From an uncultured bacterium (GTDB lineage Bacteria > Omnitrophota > Omnitrophia > JAHJGZ01), in NCBI GenBank assembly GCA_964558015.1, contig CAZLCT010000003.1, positions 1 to 55,850 of the forward strand: a stretch of 55,850 nucleotides of DNA, in the 5' to 3' direction. The translations under genes were made by a program, and so were the position numbers. The notes beneath the pieces were generated by a model. The model saw nothing but the letters and a program-made list of their open reading frames with translations. It had not been told where the DNA came from and searched no databases. Positions 303-55,850 of this stretch are shown one piece after another; position 1 is the stretch's first letter; each line of letters begins with the position of its first letter.

Positions 303-3182
303 ATGAAAAACCTACCACTTAAAGTTTTAGTACTATATGCAGTAATTATTATTTTTGTGTTGTATTTTTCACCTTCCTTTTTATATTCCCAAGGCATGGA
401 TTTTTATGAACAAGATGGTTTTTCAACACACGATAAAACAAAACTTGCTAATTTTTATTGGCAGTTGAGCCAGGAACTTTTTAAGCAGAAACAATTTGAT
501 GAAGCTATTTTTCAAGTCCAAAGAGTTTATGAATTTAGCCCTAATGACGATAGGGTGGCATCTTTTATTGAAAGTGTAAAATCGGCAAGAGATAGCAATA
601 AATCTTCAAAACAGAGGATGTATAGAGCATTCATCGATAGAGAACAAGAAGATTATACAGGAGGGAGTGTTGATACGTACCTTCCTATGCCTGCAGAAGT
701 AAGCCCTGCTTATGGACCACAAATAAGACTTCCCCAGCACGTCGAGAAATCTATAGAAAAAATGATTAAAAGAGCCCGCGTTAGTTATCAGAATAAAAAC
801 TATAATGATGCACTATATTATTTAAATGAAGTCCTTGTTATGGATTCATCAAACAGGGAGGCATTGAATTTAAAGAATAGAATTGTTAAAGAGAAAAGCT
901 TTGTAAGAACAAAAGAACTGCCTTCGGCTCCCAAGAGGCCCGATGAGAGAGTGGCACAGGCTATGGTAAATGCTCAAAAGGAATATAAAAGGCGGAATTA
1001 TGATGCAGCCTTATTTTATCTTAATGCCGTACTTATTTGGCACCCTCAAAATGAAGAGGCATTATCATTGAAAAATATTATTTTAAATGAAAGACGATCT
1101 AAATATGAAAGTGTATATGAGCGTGAGCGTAAACAAAAAGCAGAGGCATTTAGAGATAGAGAGGAAACAGGAGATATATCACCCCCTCAAGAGAGTATGG
1201 CTGATATTAAGGAATATGAGCGAATGCGACTAAAAATACAAGAAGAAAGATATAAAGAAGAGGAAAAAAGAAATAGATTAGCTGAAGCAAGAATCCGTGA
1301 GGATGTCCGTAGGCGTATTGAATTACAGGAGAAAGAAGACCTGGAGTTATTAATTCAAGAAGTTGAAGAGAGTAAATTTTATGAAAAGTTTCAAAGCTAT
1401 GAAGAAGAAAAAGAACAGAAAAAAAGAATGCAGAAAAGACAAATTCATTCTTTCCTCCTGCGAGCTGAAGGCTTAATGGAGATGGGAAAGTATGAAGAAG
1501 CCGCTGTTTATTTAAATAATGTTTTTATGGTTGAGCCTTATAATGAACGTGCTCAAAAGATGCGCGTAAAGCTTGAGCAGGAATTGGTTGATAAAAAAAT
1601 ACGTGAAAGAAGAGAGTACGATAAACTTTTTGAGGAAGAGAAAAAAGAATATAAGAAAATCCGTGAAAATGTACGTAAAGAAAAGATCCGAACATTATTA
1701 AATGAAGCAGATCGTTTATATGATGAGGATGATTTGCTAACAGCACGGCAGGAATACCAAAAGGTGATTATTGTTGATCCATCAAACAGACATGCGAAAA
1801 GGTTTTTAAAGAAGATAGATAAAAAACTTCTTACATTGCAAGAGGAGATGCGTGCACAGGAAGAATTGCGAGAGGAGAGAAGAGCACAAGCCATGGAAGA
1901 ATCATTTCAAGAGGCGGCACGAGCTCTTGAGATAGAATTAATAAAAGAAAAGAAAGAGGACCTCAGTATTCAGGAGCGTATAAGAGTATTTTTAGCACAA
2001 GCTGATCATAAGGCAGAAATCGAACATGATTATGATGGCGCTTTAGTTGACCTTAACAGAGCATATGCAATTGATCCTGGTAATAAGAAAGTAATGGATA
2101 AAATTAAAAAGGTGAGGGCACTTAAGGCAAGAAGAATAGATCATCCAGAGAAAGAAATCCATGAAATTCTTACGAGAGAGTCAGATAAATCAGAAAAGTC
2201 TATTTCTATCGCTGTAGATAGAGAAGAAGAGAAAAAAGCAAAAGAACAGAAATGGGAAGAATTAAAGCGTGGTAAACAAATATTAGGAGCTGCAGCTCGT
2301 CGAAGCTATCAGGGTAAAGTCGAAGAATATGTCAGCAATGCCCAGAGGTATTTAGAGCAGAAGCAATTTGATAAAGCTCGGTCGGAGGTTGAGCGCATTT
2401 TCTTGTTTGATAAGAATAATCCAACCGCAAAAGATTTGCTCGCCAGAATAACAGAATATGAAATTTCGTATGAAAAAAAGATGGAAGAAAAATCCCTAGA
2501 TCAAGAATTTGAAACAGGATTGGAACTGGAGAAGCTAAAGGTTGAGATGCAGAGGAGAGCTGAGGGTAAGGTCATACGCGAACCACAGGAAGCTAAAATA
2601 GAAGATAAAAAGATTCAGGAAAAAACAATAAAGAAATTAATCAAAGAAGGAAAGTCACTTTACAAAAAGGAAAGATATTATGAGGCCTTAAATAAGTTTG
2701 AGGCAATTTTTGCAATTGATGCTCAGAATGAAGAAGCTTCTCGTTATGTTGATAAAATCAAGGAAACTATGCTTAAAGAACGCGAAGAAGAAAGAAAGAG
2801 GATTAGAGAAAAACAGCGGGAAGAAATAAATGAAAAACTAAACGAATATAGTAGTCAAATACAATCTTTACATAAACAGGGTCGCTATACTGAAGCTGCG
2901 ATTCTAATTGAAAAGGGTTTGCTTTTAGATCCAACGAGTAAGTATCTCAAAGAACTTAAAAAGCTTAATCAAAGAGGTTCGGATGAGAAGATGCGACTTA
3001 ATTTATCCGATGAAGAAAAGGTTAAAGATTTAATCAATATTGCAATAAAAGAATTTATACAGGGTAATTATCTTGAATCAAGAAAGTATTTTGAGAAGGT
3101 TTTAGAAATTAGTCCTGATGATGAAAAGGCAAAAAATTCAATCGCTAAGATTGATAAAAAAGTTAAAGAGTTAGGTTTGTAA
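303..3182 (+). CDS. secreted or membrane-anchored coiled-coil / TPR-like repeat protein (959 aa), function unknown
   Basis: Hydrophobic N-terminus (LKVLVLYAVIIIFVLYFSPSFLYS). Ten copies of a module of the type Y/F-x-x-A-x-x-x-L-N-x-V-x-x-x-D-P-x-N-x-x-A (e.g. YNDALYYLNEVLVMDSSNREALNLKNRI, YDAALFYLNAVLIWHPQNEEALSLKNII), separated by long E/K/R-rich stretches. Confidence 0.85.
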   Translation: MKNLPLKVLVLYAVIIIFVLYFSPSFLYSQGMDFYEQDGFSTHDKTKLANFYWQLSQELFKQKQFDEAIFQVQRVYEFSPNDDRVASFIESVKSARDSNKSSKQRMYRAFIDREQEDYTGGSVDTYLPMPAEVSPAYGPQIRLPQHVEKSIEKMIKRARVSYQNKNYNDALYYLNEVLVMDSSNREALNLKNRIVKEKSFVRTKELPSAPKRPDERVAQAMVNAQKEYKRRNYDAALFYLNAVLIWHPQNEEALSLKNIILNERRSKYESVYERERKQKAEAFRDREETGDISPPQESMADIKEYERMRLKIQEERYKEEEKRNRLAEARIREDVRRRIELQEKEDLELLIQEVEESKFYEKFQSYEEEKEQKKRMQKRQIHSFLLRAEGLMEMGKYEEAAVYLNNVFMVEPYNERAQKMRVKLEQELVDKKIRERREYDKLFEEEKKEYKKIRENVRKEKIRTLLNEADRLYDEDDLLTARQEYQKVIIVDPSNRHAKRFLKKIDKKLLTLQEEMRAQEELREERRAQAMEESFQEAARALEIELIKEKKEDLSIQERIRVFLAQADHKAEIEHDYDGALVDLNRAYAIDPGNKKVMDKIKKVRALKARRIDHPEKEIHEILTRESDKSEKSISIAVDREEEKKAKEQKWEELKRGKQILGAAARRSYQGKVEEYVSNAQRYLEQKQFDKARSEVERIFLFDKNNPTAKDLLARITEYEISYEKKMEEKSLDQEFETGLELEKLKVEMQRRAEGKVIREPQEAKIEDKKIQEKTIKKLIKEGKSLYKKERYYEALNKFEAIFAIDAQNEEASRYVDKIKETMLKEREEERKRIREKQREEINEKLNEYSSQIQSLHKQGRYTEAAILIEKGLLLDPTSKYLKELKKLNQRGSDEKMRLNLSDEEKVKDLINIAIKEFIQGNYLESRKYFEKVLEISPDDEKAKNSIAKIDKKVKELGL

Positions 3183-25482: not shown

Positions 25483-28170
25483 ATGACTAGTTTTGATGTG
25501 AAGAAAAACTTTTATAAAGAGACATATGTTTTCTATTGTAATAGTATTTGTATGGATGGTGATTCATATAAGTATCATGGATTAGGCGGGTCAGAAAGTT
25601 CATTAATTTACATGGCACAAGAAATAGCACAGTGCGGGAAAAATGTAATTGTTTTTTGCAAAACCGAAAAGCCGGGATTTTATGATGGGGTTAGGTATGA
25701 ACGATTGGAAAAATTTACATCTTATATTCAATTTAATATTATTGATGTGTTTATTTCCGTCAGGTCCGTGGATGTTTTCTTGAATTCAATCAAGGCTAGA
25801 TTAAAGGTGCTTTGGTTACATGATGCAGCTGACCAGCCTCATTTAAGGTTTTTATGCGAGAGGAAAGTACAGGATAGTATAGATTATTATATAACAATTA
25901 GTGAGTGGCAGGCTCAAGGTCTTATAAAAAAGTTTGGAATTCCACGCGAGAGAATATTTTCTTCTAGGAATGGAATTAAGAAAAGCTATTATAAAATTTT
26001 AAGAGGTAGTCGCAGGAAACGGATTGTATATACATCAACCCCTTTTCGTGGACTAAAACTTTTATTAGAATTATTTCCCCATATACGTAAATGTGTTCCC
26101 GATGTTGAATTGTATGTATACTCCAGCATGGAGGTTTATGGCGTTTCTAGGGAAGAAGACCAAGATCGTTTTGGAGAGTTGTATAAGAGTTGTAATCAGC
26201 CGGGAATTAAGCTTGTGGGAACACTTCCTCAGAAACAGCTTGCCAGTGAACTTATGAAAGCAAAGGTTTTTGTTTATCCGAATATTTTTCCTGAGACATC
26301 ATGCATTGCAGCATTAGAAGCACAGGCTGCAGGGCTTCCTGCTGTTGCATCTAAACTTGGTGCACTTAAAGAAACTGTAATCAACAAAAAAACAGGATAT
26401 TTAATTGATGGTGAGGTAGACTCTGAAACGTTTAGGAAACAATTCGTTGATAATGTTGTAAAGTTATTGGAAGATGAAGAGCATTGGAGAATTTTAAGTG
26501 TTGCCTCGCGGGCAAGGGTTTTAAATGATTATTGCTGGAATTTTATTGCGCGTGAATGGATTTCATTTTTTGACTCCACTCAGCCAACCATTAGTTTATG
26601 TATGATTGCCAAAGATGAAGAAAAGTGGATAAAAAATTGTATAGAAAGTGTTAAGCCGATTGTTAATGAGATTATTGTAGTTGATACGGGGTCTACAGAT
26701 GATACCAAAAAGGTTGCCGAATCTCTAGGAGCAAGAGTTTATGATTTTAAATGGTGCGATGATTTTTCTCAGGCACGAAATTTTTCTATTAGTAAAGCAA
26801 AATCTGATTGGATTTTGATACTTGATGCTGATGAGGTTATAGGAAACCGTGATTTAGAGAAAGTGCGGCAATTGATTAATGTTTCCGATATATATGCTTA
26901 TCTTTTTTTCCAGAGGAGCTATTTGGATGATACGACGGTCGTAGGCTGGAAAGCTAACACTGGAGACTATCCGGAAGGAGAAGGATATAGCGGCTATTTT
27001 GATTCACCTCTTACCAGATTATTTAGAAACAATAATGGTTTTCGTTTTGAGGGGAAGGTTCATGAGTTGGTAGAATTTTCAATTTTAGGCCAAAAACGAA
27101 ATATTATTAAAACTAATATACCTATACATCATTATGGGAAAGTTAAGTCCCAGGATCATCTAGCGGATAAAGGAGCCTTGTATTTAGAAATCGGTAAAAT
27201 TAGAATTGAAGAAAACCCAACGGATCCTCGGGCTTATTATGATTTAGGGGCTCAATATTTTGAACTTAATCGTTTTTCTGAAGCAAAAGAATATTATAAA
27301 AAGGCAGTAAATTTAGATAAAAATTATTATCGTGCCTTATGCGATCTTGGCATGATATACGCAAAAGAAGGGAACTACGAAGAGGCTTTGCCTCTTCTTG
27401 AGAAAGTCAGGCTTATAAATCCCAATTATATTTCTAATTATGTTAGTTTGGGGATTGTATATAAATGTCTTGATAGAATAGATGATGCAATTGGAGTTCT
27501 TATGGAAGGACTTAAAGTAGATCCCCACAATGTGAATGCCTATAAAAATTTAGGGCTTATTTATTTTTCTCAAAATAGTAGTAAAGAAGCATTACAATGT
27601 TTTCGGAAAATGAAAAAACTGGATCCATCTATTAGTGTCAGTGGCGAGCATGCGGCAGCAAGTTATAAAGTAGGATTATCTTTGTTTGAAAATAAGGAGT
27701 TTATGAAGGCTAAAAAATATTTTGAAGAGGCTATAAAAGTATTACCGTCATATTCTTCTGCATATAATAACTTAGGAATTATTTATGTGAATAGCGGTGA
27801 TTATTCAAAAGCAGAGGAGATTTTTAAGAAAGTTATCGAACTAACAGAAATGGATTCAAAATCTCATAAAGAATGTGCATCAGCATATGTTAATCTGGGA
27901 TTCTTGTGTAATAATAAAGGGGAATTTAAGGAGGCATTAGATTATTTGGAGAAAGGATTAGAACTTGATACAACAAATCCAGAAATCTATAACCATATTG
28001 GTATTGCAAAATGCGGACTAGGATTATTATCTGATGGTATTAAATTTTTTGAGATGGCAATACGACTTCAGCCTGAACATAATGCAGCAAAAATTAATTT
28101 CAAACGTGTTAATGAGGTACTAATTCAGGAGAGAAATTATCAAGCTACGGCAAAAGCTAAAGAAAAATAG
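25483..28170 (+). CDS. three-module glycosyltransferase: GT4-like N-terminal domain, GT2 (GT-A) central domain, C-terminal TPR array (895 aa)
   Basis: GT4-like: GGSESSLIYMAQEIAQCGKNV... and PETSCIAALEAQAAGLPAVASKLGALKETV. GT2: ISLCMIAKDEEKWIKNCIESV...VVDTGSTDDT...ILILDADEV. At least six TPRs from about residue 590. Confidence 0.85.
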   Translation: MTSFDVKKNFYKETYVFYCNSICMDGDSYKYHGLGGSESSLIYMAQEIAQCGKNVIVFCKTEKPGFYDGVRYERLEKFTSYIQFNIIDVFISVRSVDVFLNSIKARLKVLWLHDAADQPHLRFLCERKVQDSIDYYITISEWQAQGLIKKFGIPRERIFSSRNGIKKSYYKILRGSRRKRIVYTSTPFRGLKLLLELFPHIRKCVPDVELYVYSSMEVYGVSREEDQDRFGELYKSCNQPGIKLVGTLPQKQLASELMKAKVFVYPNIFPETSCIAALEAQAAGLPAVASKLGALKETVINKKTGYLIDGEVDSETFRKQFVDNVVKLLEDEEHWRILSVASRARVLNDYCWNFIAREWISFFDSTQPTISLCMIAKDEEKWIKNCIESVKPIVNEIIVVDTGSTDDTKKVAESLGARVYDFKWCDDFSQARNFSISKAKSDWILILDADEVIGNRDLEKVRQLINVSDIYAYLFFQRSYLDDTTVVGWKANTGDYPEGEGYSGYFDSPLTRLFRNNNGFRFEGKVHELVEFSILGQKRNIIKTNIPIHHYGKVKSQDHLADKGALYLEIGKIRIEENPTDPRAYYDLGAQYFELNRFSEAKEYYKKAVNLDKNYYRALCDLGMIYAKEGNYEEALPLLEKVRLINPNYISNYVSLGIVYKCLDRIDDAIGVLMEGLKVDPHNVNAYKNLGLIYFSQNSSKEALQCFRKMKKLDPSISVSGEHAAASYKVGLSLFENKEFMKAKKYFEEAIKVLPSYSSAYNNLGIIYVNSGDYSKAEEIFKKVIELTEMDSKSHKECASAYVNLGFLCNNKGEFKEALDYLEKGLELDTTNPEIYNHIGIAKCGLGLLSDGIKFFEMAIRLQPEHNAAKINFKRVNEVLIQERNYQATAKAKEK

Positions 28171-42735: not shown

Positions 42736-43992
42736 TCAACTGTTTTTCTTATTCAACCCGCAAAGGTCTATCCAACGCTTAATGGGGGTAAGTTTCATGA
42801 AATACTTCCATATGAGTTCACTTCGGTAGTTTTCAATCATAAGAATAGTAATGCCCTGATCTATGGCAAGATATTTACGAGCGAACCACCTTCGGTCAAG
42901 ATTGAAGGCATCTTTAAATCCGTATTGTCCGTAAAGTTTTTCTTTTTGTGTATTGTATAAATGATTAAGTGCTGAAATAGATTTCTCAGGTGTAAAAACA
43001 ATTGAACTAATTGAACCATAAGGGGCGATTGTCCCGTCATTGTATGCTCTGCCTGGTTTTGCCCCGTATGCCTTATATCCCGATGGACCGAGGCAGGCAG
43101 TTAGGCCCCAATAGTTATTTTCGTATGTGATATATTTTGAAGATAAATTTTTACAGAAGTTTTTATTAGCTAAGGTGGCATAAGTCGAATTTTCGAAATA
43201 ATTAATATCCATGTCATATAGTTTTCTAAAGTCGATAAAAGCATGCGAGAATTGATATGTAAACAGTGAACCTGTGAAAGAATAAACTATTCTTTTATCA
43301 TTATTATATTCTTCAAAACGGTTCCATTCATTCCATAAATGAGGTGGAATGGGATGGGTAGGAGACCCAATGGCCAAAGCCTGAAGTATGAGATGTTCAC
43401 TATATGTATCCCAGTAATAGGGAAGGAACCCACTCTCGGGCTTATAGCCGTGAGATATGAGGCTAGAGTTATTCAGCATCCAATCCCATTGAACATTTTC
43501 ATATAGCTTTTTTGCTGTGGTTTCGATAGGTGTTCCTTTAAAATAATCTCCTACAAGAAGAACACCTGCCATAAGCAGGGCTGTATCGATTGAAGAGACT
43601 TCCGAACCCCATACTCTTTTTCCTGTTTTTGGATCGATAAAATGATAGAAAAAACCATTTTTCCCATGAGCTTTATTTTTTAAGGAATTTAAGACGGTTT
43701 TTGCTCTTTCATATGCATTTTGTTTTGTAATCCAGTTGTTTTCGGTTGCGATGGTAAGTGATGCAAGGTAGAATCCTACGGCTGCAATCGAGCATGGAGA
43801 TCCTATTGCTGAGGAGTCGCAGGTCAGACCTGTTTCCTCCGGTGTAAAGTCGAGAAAGTATTTAAAAGAATCTTTTTGAATTTTTGCAAGCAGGACTTCG
43901 TCAGTCTCGATCTCGGAAAAAATTATCTCCGTGGAAAAGAGAAAAAGGATAAGGAGAATACCTAAGGTGATTTTAAACAATTTTGTATGCAT
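42736..43992 (-). CDS. secreted glucoamylase-like / GH144 (beta-1,2-glucanase-like, PF10091-type) protein
   Basis: Signal peptide MHTKLFKITLGILLILFLFS. Motifs FYHFIDPKTGKRVWGSEVSSIDTALLMAG and YWDTYSEHLILQALAIGSP match my memory of this family (unverified). I prefer the start at 43992 over the track start at 44076. Confidence 0.65.
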   Translation of the reverse strand: MHTKLFKITLGILLILFLFSTEIIFSEIETDEVLLAKIQKDSFKYFLDFTPEETGLTCDSSAIGSPCSIAAVGFYLASLTIATENNWITKQNAYERAKTVLNSLKNKAHGKNGFFYHFIDPKTGKRVWGSEVSSIDTALLMAGVLLVGDYFKGTPIETTAKKLYENVQWDWMLNNSSLISHGYKPESGFLPYYWDTYSEHLILQALAIGSPTHPIPPHLWNEWNRFEEYNNDKRIVYSFTGSLFTYQFSHAFIDFRKLYDMDINYFENSTYATLANKNFCKNLSSKYITYENNYWGLTACLGPSGYKAYGAKPGRAYNDGTIAPYGSISSIVFTPEKSISALNHLYNTQKEKLYGQYGFKDAFNLDRRWFARKYLAIDQGITILMIENYRSELIWKYFMKLTPIKRWIDLCGLNKKNS

Positions 43993-44668
43993 CTGTCGTC
44001 GTATAACGTTCAAGTTCAAGTTCAATATCGTTTTTATAACGAGTAAGATCCTCTGTTGAGACATTGTGTTTTGCAAGATCCTTGTATATATTTTTAATTA
44101 GCACCTTAATCTTTGAGATTGAATAATCAAGGCTCCCAATCATTGAGTTAAGATAAGGCAGAATTTCTTGAGCTTCATCTGTTCGTCTGAGATGAACCCG
44201 TAAAGCAAGGTTTCCGTTTTTGATTTCTTTGAATGTTTCCTGAAAGCGAAAAAGTGGTCCTGCAATTTTATGCGTAAGAAATATTGTTCCTAGTGCAATA
44301 AATAAGAATAAAAGTATTGCTTTTATGGCGAGTTCCTTATTATTTTTTTTAAGGATTTCTTGCAGTATCTCTTTTTCTCTTATGCTCAAAAGATCAATTT
44401 CTCGAAATTTTGAAAGACGGGATACGGCTTTGTTTTCATTACCAATACGGGCTTGTTCATAGTCGTGTAATTGTGAAGCCATTTGGAGTCTGTTTTTTAA
44501 ACTTTGCCTGGAAAATTCGTTAACCGCAAGGTTCCAAATACCCAATGTAAGGCATAATGAAGAAGTGAAACTCACAATTGTAAGGGTGATAAAGATATAA
44601 ATGGAATAACGAAGCTGTATTTTATTATTTATGAGATATCTCTTTCTTCTATGAGGGGTTGCGCACAT
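43973..44668 (-). CDS. two-TM membrane protein with HAMP-like domain (231 aa)
   Basis: TM1 IYIFITLTIVSFTSSLCLTLGIW, TM2 AILLFLFIALGTIFL, followed by THKIAGPLFRFQETFKEIKNGNLALRVHLR (HAMP pattern). AGGAGG lies 7 nt upstream of the ATG. Confidence 0.8.
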   Translation of the reverse strand: MCATPHRRKRYLINNKIQLRYSIYIFITLTIVSFTSSLCLTLGIWNLAVNEFSRQSLKNRLQMASQLHDYEQARIGNENKAVSRLSKFREIDLLSIREKEILQEILKKNNKELAIKAILLFLFIALGTIFLTHKIAGPLFRFQETFKEIKNGNLALRVHLRRTDEAQEILPYLNSMIGSLDYSISKIKVLIKNIYKDLAKHNVSTEDLTRYKNDIELELERYTTTDAYKIV

Positions 44669-48812: not shown

Positions 48813-48988
48813 TCATATACTACGGATTGAGTTAAAATTTTAAGTTATATAAAATTAAAATTTATTAGCTTTATAATTAATTATATAACTTTAACTAATT
48901 AATATATTAATTAAAAGATGATTTTGAATAAATTAAAATAAAGTTGTAAGTCATTTTAGTATAAAGTCTTATAAATATTTGTCATGCC

Positions 48989-49017
48989 TTGAAAATATAT
49001 GTTGAACGTGTTATATT
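48989..49017 (+). promoter_or_regulatory. candidate sigma70 promoter TTGAAA-17nt-TATATT
   Basis: ttgaaa at 48989-94, a 17-nt spacer, tatatt at 49012-17. It sits in the 465-nt AT-rich gap before the giant ORF. Confidence 0.5.
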
Positions 49018-49023
49018 TTATTG

Positions 49024-49105
49024 TAAGCAAATAACTTACATGAAAATTGATAGCCGGGTTATTTATACTTCCTGAGGTGCAGGTTGTATAGATAACCCGT
49101 TTTTT
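49024..49105 (+). ncRNA. candidate ~80-nt small RNA or terminated leader (promoter to intrinsic terminator)
   Basis: The predicted transcription start near 49024 runs into the terminator at 49055-49105. It contains a 5' hairpin gtaag-caaataa-cttac (49023-39). No ORF is present. Confidence 0.3.
49055..49105 (+). terminator. intrinsic terminator / attenuator hairpin upstream of the giant ORF
   Basis: cgggttatttatac (49055-68) pairs with gtatagataacccg (49086-99): a 14-bp stem with one mismatch and a 17-nt loop, followed by tttttt (49100-05). Confidence 0.65.
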
Positions 49106-49277
49106 ATTTGAGCACATAACTTATGGAGCACGAAGTGCGACATAAGTTATAAGGGCGAAAATAATCCGCCAAAGCCTGCTACGTCGAGATGCAAAATATA
49201 GGCGACGGCGGATACGGAACGCTGATTAATGCGGATCTAAACGCAGATATACGCTAAATTAAAGACAAGATAAAATT

Positions 49278-52200
49278 ATGTATAACACACACACACAATA
49301 CGGCAGAGGGTTAAAAGTTATAGCAACGGTCACTGTGTGTGTTTTCACATGGACTACTGCTGCGCTGGCTGATCCAAGCAGTGTTTACAAAATCAACGTG
49401 CCAGAAGCACACGGGAAAGTTAAACAGCGTTATAAAGGAACTTCAAATAAGACAATCATTCATGTACAAGATGCACATTTAAGTTCAGAAGCACAGTTTA
49501 ATCTGGCAAGGATTATTTGTGCGCTTATCCCGGAGCTTCGCACGCAGAGTAATACTGCTCTAGACGCAGATAAACGCAGATTGAATTCCGAAGAGCATCC
49601 GCGTAATTCCGCTTCTAAGGATCCAGGGATGGATAATAAAAATCTGCGAGAATCTGCGTCAAAAGGTAGGACGCCTTTTGTAGGGATAGAAGGCGCAATC
49701 GGCGAATACGACCTTAAGGAACTACGTGACTATCCAGTTCAAGAGGCTAAGGAGATAGTCGGCCGTGATTTTGTTAAGGACGGTAAATTTATTGGTGCTG
49801 AACTCGCTTCGATTATAGCTAAAGATGATTTTATTATTTATGGCCTTGAAGATCGCGAGCTTTTTACTAAAGACTTTAAGGCATTTTATAAAGCACATGC
49901 AAAATTATCAGAACTAGAAGAGCAGATTGAAATCCTAGAAGGGCAGCTGAACCTTCTCAAAGAAGCAAACTACAACCAATCTCTAAAAGAATTTGATGTT
50001 GAAGCATCTTGTTATGAAACTAATGAAAGTTATTTTGTCGATTATTTGAGTATTCTCTATGAAAAGATCATCGAATTAAATATTGATCTTTATGACTATG
50101 TTTCATTGCTTCAATTTAAAGAAGTATTCCTGATCGAGAGTATGATTTCTTGGGAAGGGATTGATAAAGAAATAGAAGAGTTTGTAGAAAGCATGAAGCA
50201 AGCCCCTTCACAAAAAGTTTCTGATTGTTACTCAAATTATAAATCTGGCAAGATTAATCAAAAAGAGATCATTTGCGTTTTAAATAACATTGCTGCAGAA
50301 CGTGGAATCCGATTCGAACCTCATTCAAACATAGCGAAGGCTCTGGAGTTCTGGCATAAGAATGAAGCTATTGATATGAATGAAATACTGCGAGATATTC
50401 TAGCTGTCAATCATGAAATTCGGCTACGTCTTGCAGTAAGTGCGGATGAAAGATCGGTTATAGAGCTCTGGCGTACACTTACTAAATTAAAAACTCTCCT
50501 AGCACTAAAAGCACTCAAGGATGATGTGGAAGAGTTTAGGACTAATCGGAAAGAATATTCGATGGAGAAAATACAGGGAAAGATCAATGATCTGTTGCGA
50601 GTTGCGAGTTACGAGTTACGAGTTGATGAATCTAAAACCCGTAATCCTTCGACAAGCTCAGGATCCCGAGCAAAGTCGAGGGGCCTGCAACCCCCAACCC
50701 CCAACATGGACGAAGTATTAGCACTTGTCGATCAATTCTACTCCCTTGCTGATCAGCGTGATATAGTTATGCTTGATAATTTGATTGCAAAAATGGATAT
50801 GGAAGGACAAGACCTTGGTGTTCTCGTTGCGGGAGGATATCATTCTAACGGTCTCATTCGTATGATGAAAGAACGTGACATTTCATTCGTGACTATCACC
50901 CCGAAGATTGACAGTACGATAGAGGACGTTGCATTTATGGACCGCATGATGGGTAAAGTCGTTTCCTTTGATCCGATGTTTACCAGTCATTTTCAATTCA
51001 GCAGGATTCAAGGTTCGGTTCTTGGATTGAAAGGACTTGGCATTTTTAATGATACGGAAATTGATAATATAATACGCGATGCGAACACTCAATTAAACGG
51101 TGCGGCAATCTTATTAGAAGACATTAACAAAAAAGCTGATGAGCTGAAGAAGAAAGAAGAATATGTGCCGTTGGCAGAAGCACTGGAACAGATTGCAAAA
51201 GAGCTTAATGAAAATAAATTTGTTGAAACGTTTATGCAAAAAAGAGGTATCACCAATTTCACCAACGAAAATGCCCGGGAATTCATGAATGAACTACGGC
51301 GAATCGTGGGGGAGAAAGTTGCTGTAGAAGGTCTTGTTGCAGATTATCTTAAAAACATGCAAGACCGATTTCTTGAACAATTAGGGCTGATAAAAACTGG
51401 GACTCTAATTAGTGACATAAAAGAAGAGGAAGCTGGATACAATGAAGATATCAAGGGGGCATATGATGCTAAGAATATTGGGAAAGTTAGGGATGTATAC
51501 GATCGAATAGAGGAGAGAATACTGAGATGGGCAGGTGCCTTTACGACCGTTTCACTTGAGGGGCTTACTAGTATTGATAATGATGTTCAGCTTATTCATG
51601 ATGATACTATAGATGACTTTGCCAAGGCCGTTGAAGTTGACGGAGAATGGGTTATCAAAGTTAATACAAAAAGATTAGAGCAGTTTTTACAAAATATACA
51701 GGATCCAGCGCACAAAAACTATGCTTTACAGATGATTCTCGGGCATGAGCTCGCGGAAGTACGTGCGCAGCAAGATGCGCGTAGCCGGGGAGAGGAGAAA
51801 ATGAATCCAGCAGATTCTCACGCCGTAGGCTTATTTATTGAAGATGAGATACATGAACGATCATCTGTGGCAGATAAGCAATCTATTTATACAAAAATAC
51901 TGATTGCACAGGCGGAGATACTGTATCAAGCCGGCTATCTTATTGAAGCTGAACAGACAGTGCTCGGATTATTTGGCGAAGATGCAAGCGGATATTATCA
52001 AGACCGAAAGGAAATGAGATTAGACGATGGCCGAATACTGCGTCTGGAATTTGAAGATTTATTATTACTTGCCCAATGTACTATTGATAGCTATTTATTC
52101 TATGTACTTTGTACGAGGCCGTTTTTAATCTTGCCTTTCAGGGATTACCCTCAGCAAATGGCACGGATGGGTGAATTTATAACGGACTATTTTTATATTG

Positions 52201-55200
52201 CTGAAAGACAGTCGGAAGAAAGAGGAGCATACAGCTATGAAATCAATTCAGCAGCTTTTCTTTCATCTGAAATGGTCGATGAAAAGGTGGTTACTCTTTT
52301 TGCTCGTATTGCAGCTTTGTATGATGGAGTACGTAAAAGATCCGGTGAAAGAAGCTTTAATTCAATTATCATGTATCTTGCAACCATAGTTAACGGGAAT
52401 AAAGAATCGCATATTCTAGATGATGCTCAGGCTTTAGCGTTTATATTAGAACATGAGGATGAACTAGTTGCACTTGGCCCGGAGATTATGAGACTCTATA
52501 TAAATTATAGTTATCGTTATCATTCTAAAGTGAGTACAAAGTATGAAAGGCCTGAAGATTATAGCAATTATTTTTTTACCCGTGAAGTTCTTGAACGTCT
52601 GCAAGGTTTCAATGGTGATGTAGCCTCAACTGAAAATTATCTTCGCTTTATGAGCATGAGTAAAAGTAGCGAGCAAATTTTTCAAGAAGAAGGGTTATTC
52701 GACCAATTTAGGCATCACATGAGTCTCGAGAACCAAACTGCTTTTACAAAATACCTCTTAGCCCAAATTAACCAGTTATCTGGTACCAGGATTGCTGGTG
52801 TCAGTGCAGATATCATGAGAACATTTTTAAATGAGAAAGTTATGCAATTATATGAATTGCATGGTTCTCTCTTAAATCCGGTGCTCAAACTGATCCTTCA
52901 TTTTCCCCATGAGTGGAATACTTATTGTGGAGATGTTTTTATGACAAAGTATCAGCGTATTGCAGCATTGGGTATTGGTTCGGAATACGTTGATGCTTTG
53001 ATCGCTCTGCAGAGCAATAAAGCAGAATTGATGAGTGATGATGTCGTGAATGCTATTGCTGCTGTGGGTACGAGCGATGTACAGGCGGCTAAAGACTTTC
53101 TGTTATTAGCAGGAAAGTCTCGTAAATACCGTATCGAAAAAAAGGAAGGAAGGGATACATATATTCCGACGAGTGAGACATTTATTCCCGAACTGATAAG
53201 TTCTCCTTTTCTAACTGCTTTTACTCGTCTTGCGCCTGAGGTTAGACAAAAGTATGTGTATCATGCTGTAGTTGTGAATCAGGATAACCGTGATTTGTTT
53301 TTTTCTTTCGAAACCGCAGAAGTTGCGGCTGTTTTTCATAATGCAAATCTCATTAGCCTTCTCGCAAAAAGATGTGAAGATAAAAGTTTTATTACAATAC
53401 TTTTAGAATCTCCTTTAAGAAATAGGCTTATTAAAGCTTTTTCAGAATCTGGCAGTGACCAGCATACGATCCTCGAGTATGCTGAACCTAATATGTTGTC
53501 TTCTGATACTAGCTTTTCACTGGTAAACAAAATTAACCGCAAAATCAGCAACAAAGAATTGCGTGAAGATCTTATCGAAGCGATTTTAAAAAATTCTGAT
53601 TTTGCGGCGTATTTAGACGATGAACAAAATTTTAACCTTTTAATGTCATGCATCGGCTTCTCTGTGAATTTTGCTCAAGGCTATATACAGTTATTCAGTA
53701 GTATGAGTCTGAATGAGTTAATGGTTTTTGGTGCCTTTTATAATAATGTGTTGCGTAGCGAGCAGGAAGCATTTGCGCTTGAAGTTATGAACTTAGTAAG
53801 AGATGACCTTGATTTGATTGACACACTAGATATGACACGATTAGGGTTGCTTTATAAATTATCACCTTATGTGGCACAGAAGTATATGATGGCAGTAGGC
53901 CGCAATCCTAGACTCTTACAATCTAATGAAATTTACGAAAAAGTAGTTGCGCTCATTTCGGGAGACTTAATTAATGGCATTACTCTGTCTCAATATGGTG
54001 ATTTACCACGTAATTATAGCCGTGCATATAGGCATAGGTTAGCGTATGTTCAACAGGACGAAAATGAACGGCCGTATGGATATCAATTAGCTAAGTTTTT
54101 AATTGATATATCACTCGATTCCAATAGTAATTATGTCCATTTTGTACAGGCGGAAGATTCCTTGCGTAAAATACACCCACAGATTCTTGATAATCTTGCT
54201 GGTTCGTTTCAGAAGTACAATAAGGATGAAGGACGCTCAGAATTTGAGTCGTGGGATGAGAATACAGCTGTTCATGAATCAGTATTGCGCGTTCTGGGAA
54301 CTCTCACGTCAGTTAATTTGAGCAAATTTATTCTTTCTGCTATAAATAGTTACAGTTCGCAAGAAGATACTACTTCAGTTAAAGAGCTCATGGATATGTT
54401 CTCGAATGAGAATGAGTTGTCCACTCTACAGTCACTCTCTGATGGGCTTATTAAGGCAATAACAACATGGAAGCGTACTGGAAAGAAAGAAAAAGGTGGC
54501 TGGCGTACGGTTTATTCTCTATACCAGCTTATTTCAGGCGCAGAGATAAGAAGGCTATTTAATAGTTCGCTGCACGAAGAGTGTCTTCAGAGCTTGTTTA
54601 GTATTAATACTGCCCACACAAAAAAACGCGATGCTGAACGGTCAAATCAAGAGGACGCATTAATCGACAAATTATTTAGTGAGACATTTATCACACAGCT
54701 TGAAAAGGTACAGTCCCAATTTGGAGGTGCAATCGTAAATATGATTCTAGATATGATTTCAAATAATCCCAACTCTATAGATACATATTTAAACGAACAA
54801 TATGTTTCTAATCTTATAGCAAATGTTGACCTTATTTTTGGCTCAGAAAATCAATCTGAGTTTGTTACTAATAAGTCCCAAGCATTAATGGCTGTATTAA
54901 ATAATGATCCGCATACGTTGCGTACTTATATGGACATGTTTACAGAGATACTTGGGTCGGATTCATTAGCGAGTTTTTTAAAGAAAGGTAATTATAGTGC
55001 CATAAGAAGATGGATTTCATTATTTAATGTCCACAATACAACGCCCGAAGCATTTGAGGAATTTCAGTCTTTACTAAAAAGACAGATGGGAGAGATAGCC
55101 CCTGAGAAACGAGGGGAATACTTAACTATGTTAAGTAATGTTGCGCGTAGTAAATTTTTTCTTTCGACATTAAAACTTACTGGTAAAGAAATTAAGACAT

Positions 55201-55850
55201 GGTTGTCTAATTTAAGGACTCTTTCAGAGATTTTTGGTTTATTTCAAACACTGACAAATTACGGCATAGACTCTCAAGCTGCTGAGCGTTTTTGCGTTGA
55301 AATCTTAAGATCAGGAAGAAGAAATTATGTGTATGCGTTACGCAGTTTTTCTGAATTTATCAACTCGAGAACGCAATCACTTATTAAAAACGATCTCAAG
55401 CAACGTCTCAAAGCCATACAAAAAATTACGGATTATAATAATAAAAAAGTTGCTGAGCAAGAACTTAATACATTAGGCGAAGCGTTTACCATGATTACGA
55501 AACATATCAGCAACATAATTACTATAGCTGATTTTACGACACAAACAAAAGAGGGTAAGAAGGTACTAAAAGCAATAGTCGAAACATTCGGATCGCTTGG
55601 TACTGTTGGGTCAAAATTAAGTAACAGTTCACTATCTCCGCAAGTGAAAGAAGTCTTAGAATCATTAATCATCAAAATCAACGGGATTTTACAGCTTGAA
55701 TTTGATTATGTTACTACACCTCAGCAGATGGCTGATGTTGAGACCGAGTTTATGCGCCGGATGCTCAATCAAATTACAGAAGCTGAGACAGATATTCTTC
55801 CTGATGAGATTCTTAAAAATAAAGAATGGACAGAAAAGTTGACCCAGATG
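49278..55850 (+). CDS. 5' part of a giant ORF (at least 2,191 codons, 3' end beyond the window): secreted protein of unknown function
   Basis: ATG 49278 is preceded by an in-frame TAA at 49260-62. There is no stop codon in this frame through base 55850 (checked line by line). Signal-peptide-like N-terminus MYNTHTQYGRGLKVIATVTVCVFTWTTAALA/DPSS. It is absent from the supplied track, presumably because it has no stop in the window. Confidence 0.88.
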   Translation, partial: MYNTHTQYGRGLKVIATVTVCVFTWTTAALADPSSVYKINVPEAHGKVKQRYKGTSNKTIIHVQDAHLSSEAQFNLARIICALIPELRTQSNTALDADKRRLNSEEHPRNSASKDPGMDNKNLRESASKGRTPFVGIEGAIGEYDLKELRDYPVQEAKEIVGRDFVKDGKFIGAELASIIAKDDFIIYGLEDRELFTKDFKAFYKAHAKLSELEEQIEILEGQLNLLKEANYNQSLKEFDVEASCYETNESYFVDYLSILYEKIIELNIDLYDYVSLLQFKEVFLIESMISWEGIDKEIEEFVESMKQAPSQKVSDCYSNYKSGKINQKEIICVLNNIAAERGIRFEPHSNIAKALEFWHKNEAIDMNEILRDILAVNHEIRLRLAVSADERSVIELWRTLTKLKTLLALKALKDDVEEFRTNRKEYSMEKIQGKINDLLRVASYELRVDESKTRNPSTSSGSRAKSRGLQPPTPNMDEVLALVDQFYSLADQRDIVMLDNLIAKMDMEGQDLGVLVAGGYHSNGLIRMMKERDISFVTITPKIDSTIEDVAFMDRMMGKVVSFDPMFTSHFQFSRIQGSVLGLKGLGIFNDTEIDNIIRDANTQLNGAAILLEDINKKADELKKKEEYVPLAEALEQIAKELNENKFVETFMQKRGITNFTNENAREFMNELRRIVGEKVAVEGLVADYLKNMQDRFLEQLGLIKTGTLISDIKEEEAGYNEDIKGAYDAKNIGKVRDVYDRIEERILRWAGAFTTVSLEGLTSIDNDVQLIHDDTIDDFAKAVEVDGEWVIKVNTKRLEQFLQNIQDPAHKNYALQMILGHELAEVRAQQDARSRGEEKMNPADSHAVGLFIEDEIHERSSVADKQSIYTKILIAQAEILYQAGYLIEAEQTVLGLFGEDASGYYQDRKEMRLDDGRILRLEFEDLLLLAQCTIDSYLFYVLCTRPFLILPFRDYPQQMARMGEFITDYFYIAERQSEERGAYSYEINSAAFLSSEMVDEKVVTLFARIAALYDGVRKRSGERSFNSIIMYLATIVNGNKESHILDDAQALAFILEHEDELVALGPEIMRLYINYSYRYHSKVSTKYERPEDYSNYFFTREVLERLQGFNGDVASTENYLRFMSMSKSSEQIFQEEGLFDQFRHHMSLENQTAFTKYLLAQINQLSGTRIAGVSADIMRTFLNEKVMQLYELHGSLLNPVLKLILHFPHEWNTYCGDVFMTKYQRIAALGIGSEYVDALIALQSNKAELMSDDVVNAIAAVGTSDVQAAKDFLLLAGKSRKYRIEKKEGRDTYIPTSETFIPELISSPFLTAFTRLAPEVRQKYVYHAVVVNQDNRDLFFSFETAEVAAVFHNANLISLLAKRCEDKSFITILLESPLRNRLIKAFSESGSDQHTILEYAEPNMLSSDTSFSLVNKINRKISNKELREDLIEAILKNSDFAAYLDDEQNFNLLMSCIGFSVNFAQGYIQLFSSMSLNELMVFGAFYNNVLRSEQEAFALEVMNLVRDDLDLIDTLDMTRLGLLYKLSPYVAQKYMMAVGRNPRLLQSNEIYEKVVALISGDLINGITLSQYGDLPRNYSRAYRHRLAYVQQDENERPYGYQLAKFLIDISLDSNSNYVHFVQAEDSLRKIHPQILDNLAGSFQKYNKDEGRSEFESWDENTAVHESVLRVLGTLTSVNLSKFILSAINSYSSQEDTTSVKELMDMFSNENELSTLQSLSDGLIKAITTWKRTGKKEKGGWRTVYSLYQLISGAEIRRLFNSSLHEECLQSLFSINTAHTKKRDAERSNQEDALIDKLFSETFITQLEKVQSQFGGAIVNMILDMISNNPNSIDTYLNEQYVSNLIANVDLIFGSENQSEFVTNKSQALMAVLNNDPHTLRTYMDMFTEILGSDSLASFLKKGNYSAIRRWISLFNVHNTTPEAFEEFQSLLKRQMGEIAPEKRGEYLTMLSNVARSKFFLSTLKLTGKEIKTWLSNLRTLSEIFGLFQTLTNYGIDSQAAERFCVEILRSGRRNYVYALRSFSEFINSRTQSLIKNDLKQRLKAIQKITDYNNKKVAEQELNTLGEAFTMITKHISNIITIADFTTQTKEGKKVLKAIVETFGSLGTVGSKLSNSSLSPQVKEVLESLIIKINGILQLEFDYVTTPQQMADVETEFMRRMLNQITEAETDILPDEILKNKEWTEKLTQM
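49563..49660. repeat. MITE-like module inside the giant ORF: 20-bp inverted repeats made of ACGCAGAT units flanking 58 nt
   Basis: gacgcagataaacgcagatt (49563-82) faces aatctgcgagaatctgcgtc (49641-60), 17 of 20 complementary. It is read in frame as LDADKRRLNSEEHPRNSASKDPGMDNKNLRESAS. Confidence 0.6.
50597..50705. repeat. composite simple-repeat/palindrome module inside the giant ORF
   Basis: (RCGAGTT)x4 at 50597-50624; a 37-nt imperfect palindrome ccttcgacaagctcagga/tcccgagcaaagtcgaggg (50646-82) centred on GGATCC; (AACCCCC)x2 at 50689-50702. Confidence 0.6.

Follow-up and report, generated by a model that had tools for sequence, protein, structure and literature searches.

Long coding sequence at the end of the window

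The DNA analyzed here ("the window") is a stretch of 55,850 nucleotides (nt) covering positions 1 to 55,850 of contig CAZLCT010000003.1 from an uncultured bacterium of the Omnitrophota (GTDB lineage Omnitrophia, JAHJGZ01; assembly GCA_964558015.1). Its end is taken up by the 5' part of a long protein-coding gene that runs off the window. Similarity to other proteins ended near residues ~590-715 and the remainder of the translation had no matches, so the gene is described as a conserved N-terminal module, the head, on an orphan body. The gene and the main parts of its product are as follows:

49278..55850, + strand, 5' part of the long protein-coding gene, 2,191 codons, with an open frame and gene-like codon usage throughout
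49305..51047, + strand, conserved N-terminal module (head), residues ~10-590
49311..49367, + strand, hydrophobic helix, residues 12-30 (LKVIATVTVCVFTWTTAAL)
51048..51422, + strand, helical extension, residues 591-715, found in the closest subfamily only
51423..55850, + strand, orphan body, residues 716-2191, helical, non-repetitive, and acidic

An initial annotation, made by a model from the nucleotide sequence, had proposed a giant open-ended open reading frame (ORF) in this interval, and translation of 49257-55850 bore out its outline. ATG 49278 was the first start codon after the in-frame TAA at 49260-62 and no stop followed up to base 55850, leaving 2,191 codons with an open 3' end. The long frame was missing from the ORF list because the listing rule excludes frames running off the source sequence, as the annotation had surmised from the lack of a stop in the window; the list held only seven ORFs of 63-105 amino acids (aa) for the interval, all out of frame with the long one as had been stated. 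With a mononucleotide stop probability of 0.072 per codon, derived from the local base composition, a run of 2,191 codons lacking a stop had a probability of ~1e-71, and the other five frames of the interval contained 92-252 stops each.

The coding-potential check that the annotation had suggested was run as a codon log-likelihood trained on the 26 other + strand genes of the window, including the flagellar genes. The long frame scored +0.213 bits/codon overall and +0.16 to +0.28 in each 300-codon tile, near the low end of the range of the training genes (0.17-0.41), and all five alternative frames scored negative. Since every tile was gene-like, the call as a coding sequence is valid over the whole length, including the part free of homologues, and the interval is a genuine protein-coding gene. 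GC content by codon position was 0.49/0.33/0.33 compared with 0.48/0.33/0.27 in the training genes, and the GC content of the third codon position (GC3; 0.325) was thus higher than in the 26 other genes of the window (0.267). Together with the low-end codon score, this may point to codons that are less well adapted or to a body that arose or was acquired more recently.

No Shine-Dalgarno motif was found at ATG 49278, as was also the case for ~10 of the 27 window genes checked, and the N-termini of homologues began at a comparable 8-12 residues ahead of the hydrophobic helix. That the frame is non-functional, arising by chance, from an assembly chimera, or as a decaying pseudogene, is very unlikely. 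A body lacking a homologue in all searches made, the raised GC3, and the missing Shine-Dalgarno motif speak for such an origin. Set against this are the probability of the open frame, the positive score of every tile with negative scores in the other frames, and the strong conservation of the N-terminal 590 residues; genes without a Shine-Dalgarno motif are frequent in the window and orphan bodies are usual in the family described below.

Conserved N-terminal module and its distribution

Searches of Pfam, NCBIfam, and PDB sequences with the whole protein returned nothing, and the head is a domain for which neither Pfam nor NCBIfam holds a model. A first homology search retrieved 15 proteins of 1,387-3,825 aa, the named ones mostly from Candidatus Omnitrophica/Omnitrophota, and the best relatives were Omnitrophica/Omnitrophota proteins of 2,000-3,800 aa, in agreement with the link to this phylum that the initial annotation had mentioned. 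The search for orthologues it had proposed thus yielded relatives that matched the head: with these 15 and then with 21 homologues, BLASTP similarity was limited to query residues ~10-590, extending to ~715 in the closest subfamily. The proteins P0001-P0015 covered residues ~10-590 with identities of 38-47% to P0001-P0006, and the helical extension of residues 591-715 was delimited by BLASTP matches to P0001-P0003 that reached residues 692-714 and by the A2 consensus.

The family was defined by a head alignment (A1) with the window protein as its first row, giving a profile of ~560 positions. This profile matched the long ORF with E=1.9e-208 (profile positions 6-559 on residues 16-633) and no other ORF of the window. 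An exhaustive HMMER search with A1 identified 10,194 cluster representatives at E<=1e-3, of which 7,088 reached E<=1e-30; the view that no domain could be assigned is therefore superseded for residues ~10-590, which form a strongly conserved module. Head-family proteins were ~1,000-7,000 aa long (up to 6,928 aa), and the head match started within the first ~140 residues in all of the 150 matches listed. When 112 members were compared, heads were alike in 100% of 12,432 pairs and middles in 7.2%, showing at the level of sequence that the head is homologous across the family and that the bodies are variable.

A scan of species-representative genomes identified at least eight paralogous head copies in the Omnitrophota metagenome-assembled genome (MAG) JAHJGZ01 and further copies in three other MAGs, one of Omnitrophota and two of Elusimicrobia, with relatives of the long ORF being at most 50% identical. 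The complete paralogues of JAHJGZ01 were 1,966-2,792 aa long and others left their contigs at >1,671, 3,265, and 3,838 aa. In this MAG, which derives from a marine glass biofilm, the paralogues L001-L008 were spread over seven contigs, L001 and L008 sharing one of 39 kb, and their bodies differed. A 2,116-aa family member with an -SL tail (L021) was also present on an IMG/VR viral-class contig (IMGVR_UViG_3300045144_000334, 1537-7887); this is either a cellular contig that was wrongly classed or a copy on a mobile element.

Architecture of the head and invariant residues

In the 15-member alignment (21-45% identity) the invariant positions were G46, D65, H67, A72, Q73, E138, G139, G142, E175, G189, F487, R494, G519, G520, H522, and P542. 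The window protein carries G46, D65, H67, Q73, E138, E175, R494, GG-x-H522, and P542. An AlphaFold2 (AF2) model of the head built with the family alignment had a predicted local distance difference test (pLDDT) score of 73.9, with core blocks at 85-95. From the A1 alignment and this model the head was divided into the following segments:

49452..49478, + strand, TIIHVQDAH, residues 59-67, strand beta1 (AF2 strand 59-63) followed by D65 and H67, the proposed first acid/His pair
49539..49667, + strand, variable low-complexity charged disordered loop, residues 88-130, a length-variable insert with pLDDT ~45
49677..49703, + strand, FVGIEGAIG, residues 134-142, strand beta2 with invariant E138, G139, and G142
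49794..49850, + strand, GAELASII...IIYGLE, residues 173-191, third core strand, with E175 and G189 invariant and E191 near-invariant
49854..50603, + strand, all-helical insertion of ~250 aa, residues 193-442, splitting the alpha/beta core (AF2 pLDDT mostly 84-95)
50619..50696, + strand, second variable disordered loop, residues 448-473, pLDDT ~40 and length-variable in A1
50736..50903, + strand, FY..A..R494(28 aa)GGYH522...P542, residues 487-542, helix-strand-helix-strand, with invariant residues and sub-threshold ChaN and TraB/GumN matches

The predicted order began with a helix (7-29), a beta-hairpin (46-52), and a strand (59-63) leading into D-A-H, then a long helix and the first disordered loop, which the model placed at ~105-130. 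It continued with a strand (134-137) followed by E-G, helices, a strand (186-190) followed by E-D, and the helical insertion (193-442), which is partly deleted in P0006. After the second loop (448-473) came a helix with F487, Y488, and R494, a strand (513-517) followed by G-G-Y-H, a helix, and a strand (536-542). This strand-helix order placed each conserved motif at the end of a strand. The two loops, 88-130 and 448-473, were low-complexity, charged, and length-variable, and even close homologues had unrelated sequences there; these loops may be places of frequent variation, or linker or processing sites.

Possible relationship of the head to the TIKI superfamily

The TIKI superfamily is defined by a parallel beta-sheet core with 2His/2Glu (E3900, H3902, E3930, and H4030 in RRSP) and a conserved arginine, R4001 (PMC6254334). 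A ChaN/TraB/Tiki/Ere-like hypothesis for the head was framed from its motifs ahead of the profile tests. The cores of 17 divergent members, with their insertions removed, were scanned at a permissive threshold against the 24,736 models of the Pfam library; eight of the 17 cores matched PF04187 ("Haem-binding uptake, Tiki superfamily, ChaN"; E 0.014-0.12), always at profile positions ~126-212 with ends at 204 or 212 of 213. PF01963 (TraB_PrgY_gumN) was matched in two cores, and unrelated families came up twice at most. As the two families had been specified beforehand, these E-values correspond to a per-model P of ~1e-6. An hhalign comparison of the 158-sequence core alignment with a nine-sequence TraB/GumN alignment, made of Escherichia coli YbaP and eight plasmid homologues, gave P=0.0016 and paired IEGA with ELEG, R494 with the "QRN" arginine of TraB/GumN, and GGYH with GALH.

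Mapped by motif order only, D65-x-H67, E138, R494, and H522 of the head follow the residue order of RRSP, with D65-x-H67 falling on E3900-x-H3902 and a spacing of 28 residues between R494 and H522 compared with 29 between R4001 and H4030 (PMC6254334). The conserved basic residue upstream of the second histidine is represented by the invariant R494, and the AF2 secondary-structure order fits a predicted parallel sheet flanked by helices. Taken together, the profiles and motifs lend moderate support to the head being a remote TIKI relative with a putative hydrolytic His/acid/Arg site, of a protease or an esterase.

Orphan body

The body is rich in L, E, S, and I. Residues 701-2191 had zero matches in a word-seeded search of 5.8 billion proteins, residues 601-2191 had zero matches among 168 family members (phmmer), the last 791 residues had zero matches in metagenome contigs, and the body matched nothing in Pfam, NCBIfam, or the PDB. 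Self-BLAST detected no internal repeats in the 2,191-residue protein and single-sequence AF2 of residues 601-1800 was nearly all helical at a pLDDT of 35, too low for fold assignment, so the initial description of the remainder as non-repetitive and helix-rich held.

Orphan bodies are the rule in the head family. Some relatives carry helicase/AAA, radical-SAM, HAD, HD plus glycogen-enzyme, or PEP-utilising domains in their bodies, and others carry methyltransferase plus glycosyltransferase or cNMP-binding domains. In the long ORF, the Pfam search identified no adhesin-type domains (discoidin, dockerin, Ig-like, or RTX), and Pfam at E<=1 together with self-BLAST revealed neither RTX glycine-rich repeats nor a cysteine protease domain. 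An HExxH metalloprotease in the body was considered and dropped, the motif at residue ~845 reading HELAE.

N-terminal helix and topology

Residues 12-30 were the sole transmembrane-like segment in the 2,191 residues (Kyte-Doolittle 1.65). The initial annotation had read the N-terminus as a Sec signal peptide, and signal-type features were indeed present, with R10 and K13, an h-region at 14-28, and A29-L-A31 followed by D32; several relatives have a proline directly after the small-x-small motif. That the signal is a generic one is called into question, as the helix was conserved by position across the family: K/R13 in 132 of 141 members, S/A16, F23 in 146 of 151, S/T/N at 26-27, and F/W30. The window protein has K13, A16, and F23, with the minority state L at position 30 (12 of 143). 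Generic cleaved signal peptides seldom show such positional conservation, which suggests a retained anchor or a specifically recognized helix; residues 12-30 would serve as a signal-anchor or as a signal peptide. For lack of a G-F-T-L-I-E-type motif, a prepilin signal (class III) was dropped from consideration.

The N-terminus bears on two alternative readings of the protein. In the first, it would be a secreted or surface giant adhesin, a non-enzymatic structural protein with a cleaved Sec signal peptide and a head that is structural or ligand-binding, for example for haem or a cofactor as in ChaN. The n/h/c-like segment with its A-L-A agrees with this, as do the best Pfam resemblance of the head, which is to a binding protein (ChaN), a helical body devoid of enzyme domains, and the prediction of a signal peptide and/or transmembrane helices in most long Omnitrophota proteins (bioRxiv 10.64898/2026.06.07.730766). 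A His/acid/Arg set that is strictly invariant across members of only 20-25% identity fits a catalytic site better than a scaffold, no domain of the adhesin types was detected, and the helix is conserved by position in a way that ordinary cleaved signal peptides are not; an adhesin is therefore considered somewhat unlikely.

In the second, the protein would be a scaffold tethered to the inner membrane, with head and body on the cytoplasmic face and the enzymes of relatives active in their own cytoplasm. The radical SAM, helicase/AAA, PEP-utilising, methyltransferase, and glycosyltransferase domains of the relatives need cytoplasmic cofactors, and the class with transmembrane helices only (46% of 916 long proteins) has been argued to face mostly the cytoplasm (bioRxiv 10.64898/2026.06.07.730766). 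The charges around the helix (~+2 before it and ~+3 net in the 25 residues after it) leave its orientation undecided, whereas the short N-terminal tails of the family, with two to three positive charges, favor an N-in/C-out arrangement. The membrane-bound TIKI proteins PrgY and Tiki, and also ChaN, are extracytoplasmic. A cytoplasm-facing scaffold is accordingly regarded as quite unlikely.

C-terminal tail and expected length

Of the 157 family members examined, 108 end in [A/S][A/L/V/I/M] (AA 41, SL 39, AL 11, and SV 7), and many of those lacking this tail are likely fragments. The dipeptide follows a recognizable amphipathic motif of ~25 residues, exemplified by "ILPRIxPVDxxEAxEAYKAAQxALRSL", "PxKPxDxxxELxxRRxVLWSV", and "...QSIExAA". 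All complete paralogues of JAHJGZ01 end in -xAA and the 2,116-aa IMG/VR member ends in ...AVATSL. The tail class was that of the nearest head neighbor in 95 of 112 cases compared with 51% by chance. In sequence, this tail is reminiscent of the nonpolar tags by which C-termini are recognized (ssrA-like or ligands of tail-specific proteases). An exosortase-type or type IX secretion system C-terminal sorting signal was dropped, the family tail having no transmembrane helix or beta-sandwich.

The exact 3' end of the long gene had no match in metagenome contigs. Complete relatives had a median length of 2,656 aa, which rose to 3,054 aa when only those exceeding 2,191 aa were counted; from these lengths, the full protein is most likely ~2,500-4,000 aa, near 3,000, and long rather than giant. 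Only one of 113 complete relatives exceeded 6,667 aa (~1% above 20 kb of coding sequence), and 6.6 kb of the window gene is visible. The term "giant" in the initial annotation is consequently not established, and the type II/IV secretion locus that accompanies giant genes was not found upstream either.

Proposed function and significance

The window gene probably encodes a long anchored or exported Omnitrophota protein composed of a TIKI-like head, a hypervariable body, and a C-terminal tail beyond the window. The visible part would correspond to the 5' two-thirds or so of a single-pass anchored or exported protein of ~3,000 aa. By analogy with PrgY and Tiki, the N-terminal helix would direct Sec insertion and tether the head outside the membrane, where the head may process its own protein or a partner. 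The conserved head and tail would serve export and maturation as the constant portions of the protein, with the body as a lineage-specific payload or surface module.

Several results weigh against this interpretation. Curated Pfam thresholds were not reached, the best scores being 15.9 against 27.7 bits for PF04187 and 13.9 against 26.8 for PF01963. Foldseek with the 720-aa head model identified nothing significant in the PDB (EreC 6xcs_A at rank 37, E=6.8), probably because the core is split and the helical insert is long. Searching PDB sequences with profiles of the whole head, of its core, and of its C-lobe gave chance matches only and no TIKI member; the hhalign comparison of the core with E. 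coli YbaP alone was negative, P=0.0016 being obtained only with both sides deepened. The first acidic position is Asp (D65) instead of Glu, and the segment that matched, a beta-alpha-beta unit, could look similar to many Rossmann-like folds. Finally, no tail-like module was present within the visible 2,191 residues, and the [A/S][A/L/V]-COOH tail of the window gene is a prediction placed past the window end. With no threshold reached and the structure and PDB searches null, the head is treated as a candidate remote relative, probably acting in the manner of a TIKI hydrolase, and not as an established TIKI member.

A more far-reaching version of the proposal is speculative and rather improbable. 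Here, head and tail would form an export-and-processing cassette that deploys thousands of swapped bodies as MARTX-like effectors or surface proteins of Omnitrophota and some Elusimicrobia. A membrane-tethered TIKI-type protease head would mature or release the cargo, possibly by recognizing the [A/S][A/L/V]-COOH tail, and those cargo enzymes that depend on cofactors would be active in the cell of a host or prey.

Proteins of great length and poor conservation are a hallmark of the Omnitrophota. A head of ~560 positions occurring in more than 10,000 protein clusters, with multiple paralogues per genome, provides a handle on them, and its invariant His/acid/Arg constellation makes the hydrolase hypothesis testable by mutagenesis. 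Head and tail, if confirmed, would provide a rule by which such genes could be recognized, classified, and completed in fragmented assemblies, and would open a first mechanistic entry to their processing, export, and anchoring. The orphan body of ~1,500 residues illustrates fast payload turnover.

Leader and genomic neighborhood

The region directly upstream of the long gene contained:

48813..49277, + strand, 465-nt leader of the long gene, with a good sigma-70-like site at 48989-49017 and structured RNA at 49025-49285

The leader RNA, located downstream of the promoter-like site, folded far better than shuffled sequences (z = -6.0). It includes a 13-bp hairpin (49056-49098) followed by the U-run UUUUUUAUUU and a second hairpin (49116-49151). 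The 13-bp hairpin was missed by the terminator scan; it either terminates the upstream radical-SAM gene or serves as an attenuator in the leader. The leader RNA had no Rfam match, and no sequence conservation with it was detected upstream of the paralogues.

Genes upstream code for FliA, FlgM, a glucoamylase-like protein, a HAMP protein, an NFACT-R/ThiI-like protein, MnmG, and a radical-SAM protein, with the flagellar cluster lying further up; a type II/IV secretion-like locus was not found upstream of the long gene in the window. Positions 303-42566 are mostly a flagellar and regulatory cluster (FliF, FliK, FlgE, FlhA, FliA, FlgM, a PAS histidine kinase, and a sigma-54 activator). Interspersed in it are four TPR proteins of 880-960 aa, and one of these four (25483-28170) is a fusion of TPR repeats with glycosyltransferase domains of the GT1 and GT2 types. 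On the minus strand (42736-44668), with the boundaries given in the ORF list, the HAMP ORF (43973-44668) overlaps the glucoamylase-like ORF (42736-44076, TTG start) by ~100 nt, and the true start of the glucoamylase-like gene is probably further downstream.

Comparison with known systems

The head shares with the TIKI superfamily the succession of a strand with acid-x-His, a strand with Glu, and a helix with Arg ~28 residues before a strand with G-x-His, and its predicted core fits a parallel beta-sheet with helices on its flanks; PrgY and Tiki are tethered to a membrane, as proposed for the window protein. The head differs in having Asp for the first Glu, a helical insertion of ~250 aa, and two disordered loops that split the core. 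In addition, the domain heads a protein of several thousand residues, and it reached no curated threshold and no significant Foldseek/PDB match.

As an analogy only, MARTX and polymorphic toxins are also very long and modular, with conserved ends and swappable internal cargo, and MARTX include a TIKI protease, RRSP, as a cargo domain, with autoprocessing releasing the cargo. In contrast to MARTX, no RTX repeats, cysteine protease domain, type I secretion genes, or toxin domain were seen here, and the TIKI-like domain is the constant head instead of cargo. Giant adhesins secreted by type I systems, such as LapA and MpIBP, have an N-terminal retention module cut by a protease, a conserved C-terminal signal, and a long variable region between them. 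They lack an N-terminal hydrophobic signal and contain RTX repeats and beta-rich Ig-like repeats. With constant ends around a long variable middle they resemble the head family, whereas the window ORF is helical and non-repetitive and has an N-terminal hydrophobic segment.

Long and giant proteins of Omnitrophota have already been described (Seymour et al., PMC10066038; bioRxiv 10.1101/2023.11.21.568195; bioRxiv 10.64898/2026.06.07.730766). The paper by West-Roberts et al. states that N-terminal regions "generally lack identifiable domains" and reports a type II/IV secretion context beside true giant genes (bioRxiv 10.1101/2023.11.21.568195). The window protein resembles these proteins in its length, an N-terminal signal or transmembrane segment, few annotated domains, and a poorly conserved body, and the bodies of its relatives share the reported Omnitrophota domain types (radical SAM, PPDK, HAD, glycosyltransferase, and AAA). 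It differs from the giants in size, with at least 2,191 aa and ~3,000 expected compared with classes of >20 kb (Seymour et al.), at least 10,000 aa, or >30,000 aa, and in having a flagellar cluster, MnmG, and a radical-SAM gene upstream instead of a type II/IV secretion locus. Term searches of the long-protein papers returned no description of a conserved head or C-terminal tail (PMC10066038; 10.1101/2023.11.21.568195; 10.64898/2026.06.07.730766), and a term search of the accessible literature for Omnitrophota together with Tiki, TraB, PrgY, or GumN likewise found no head or tail description. The window ORF is an ordinary new member of the known Omnitrophota long-protein class, and the description of a head and tail at the level of the family appears to be new.

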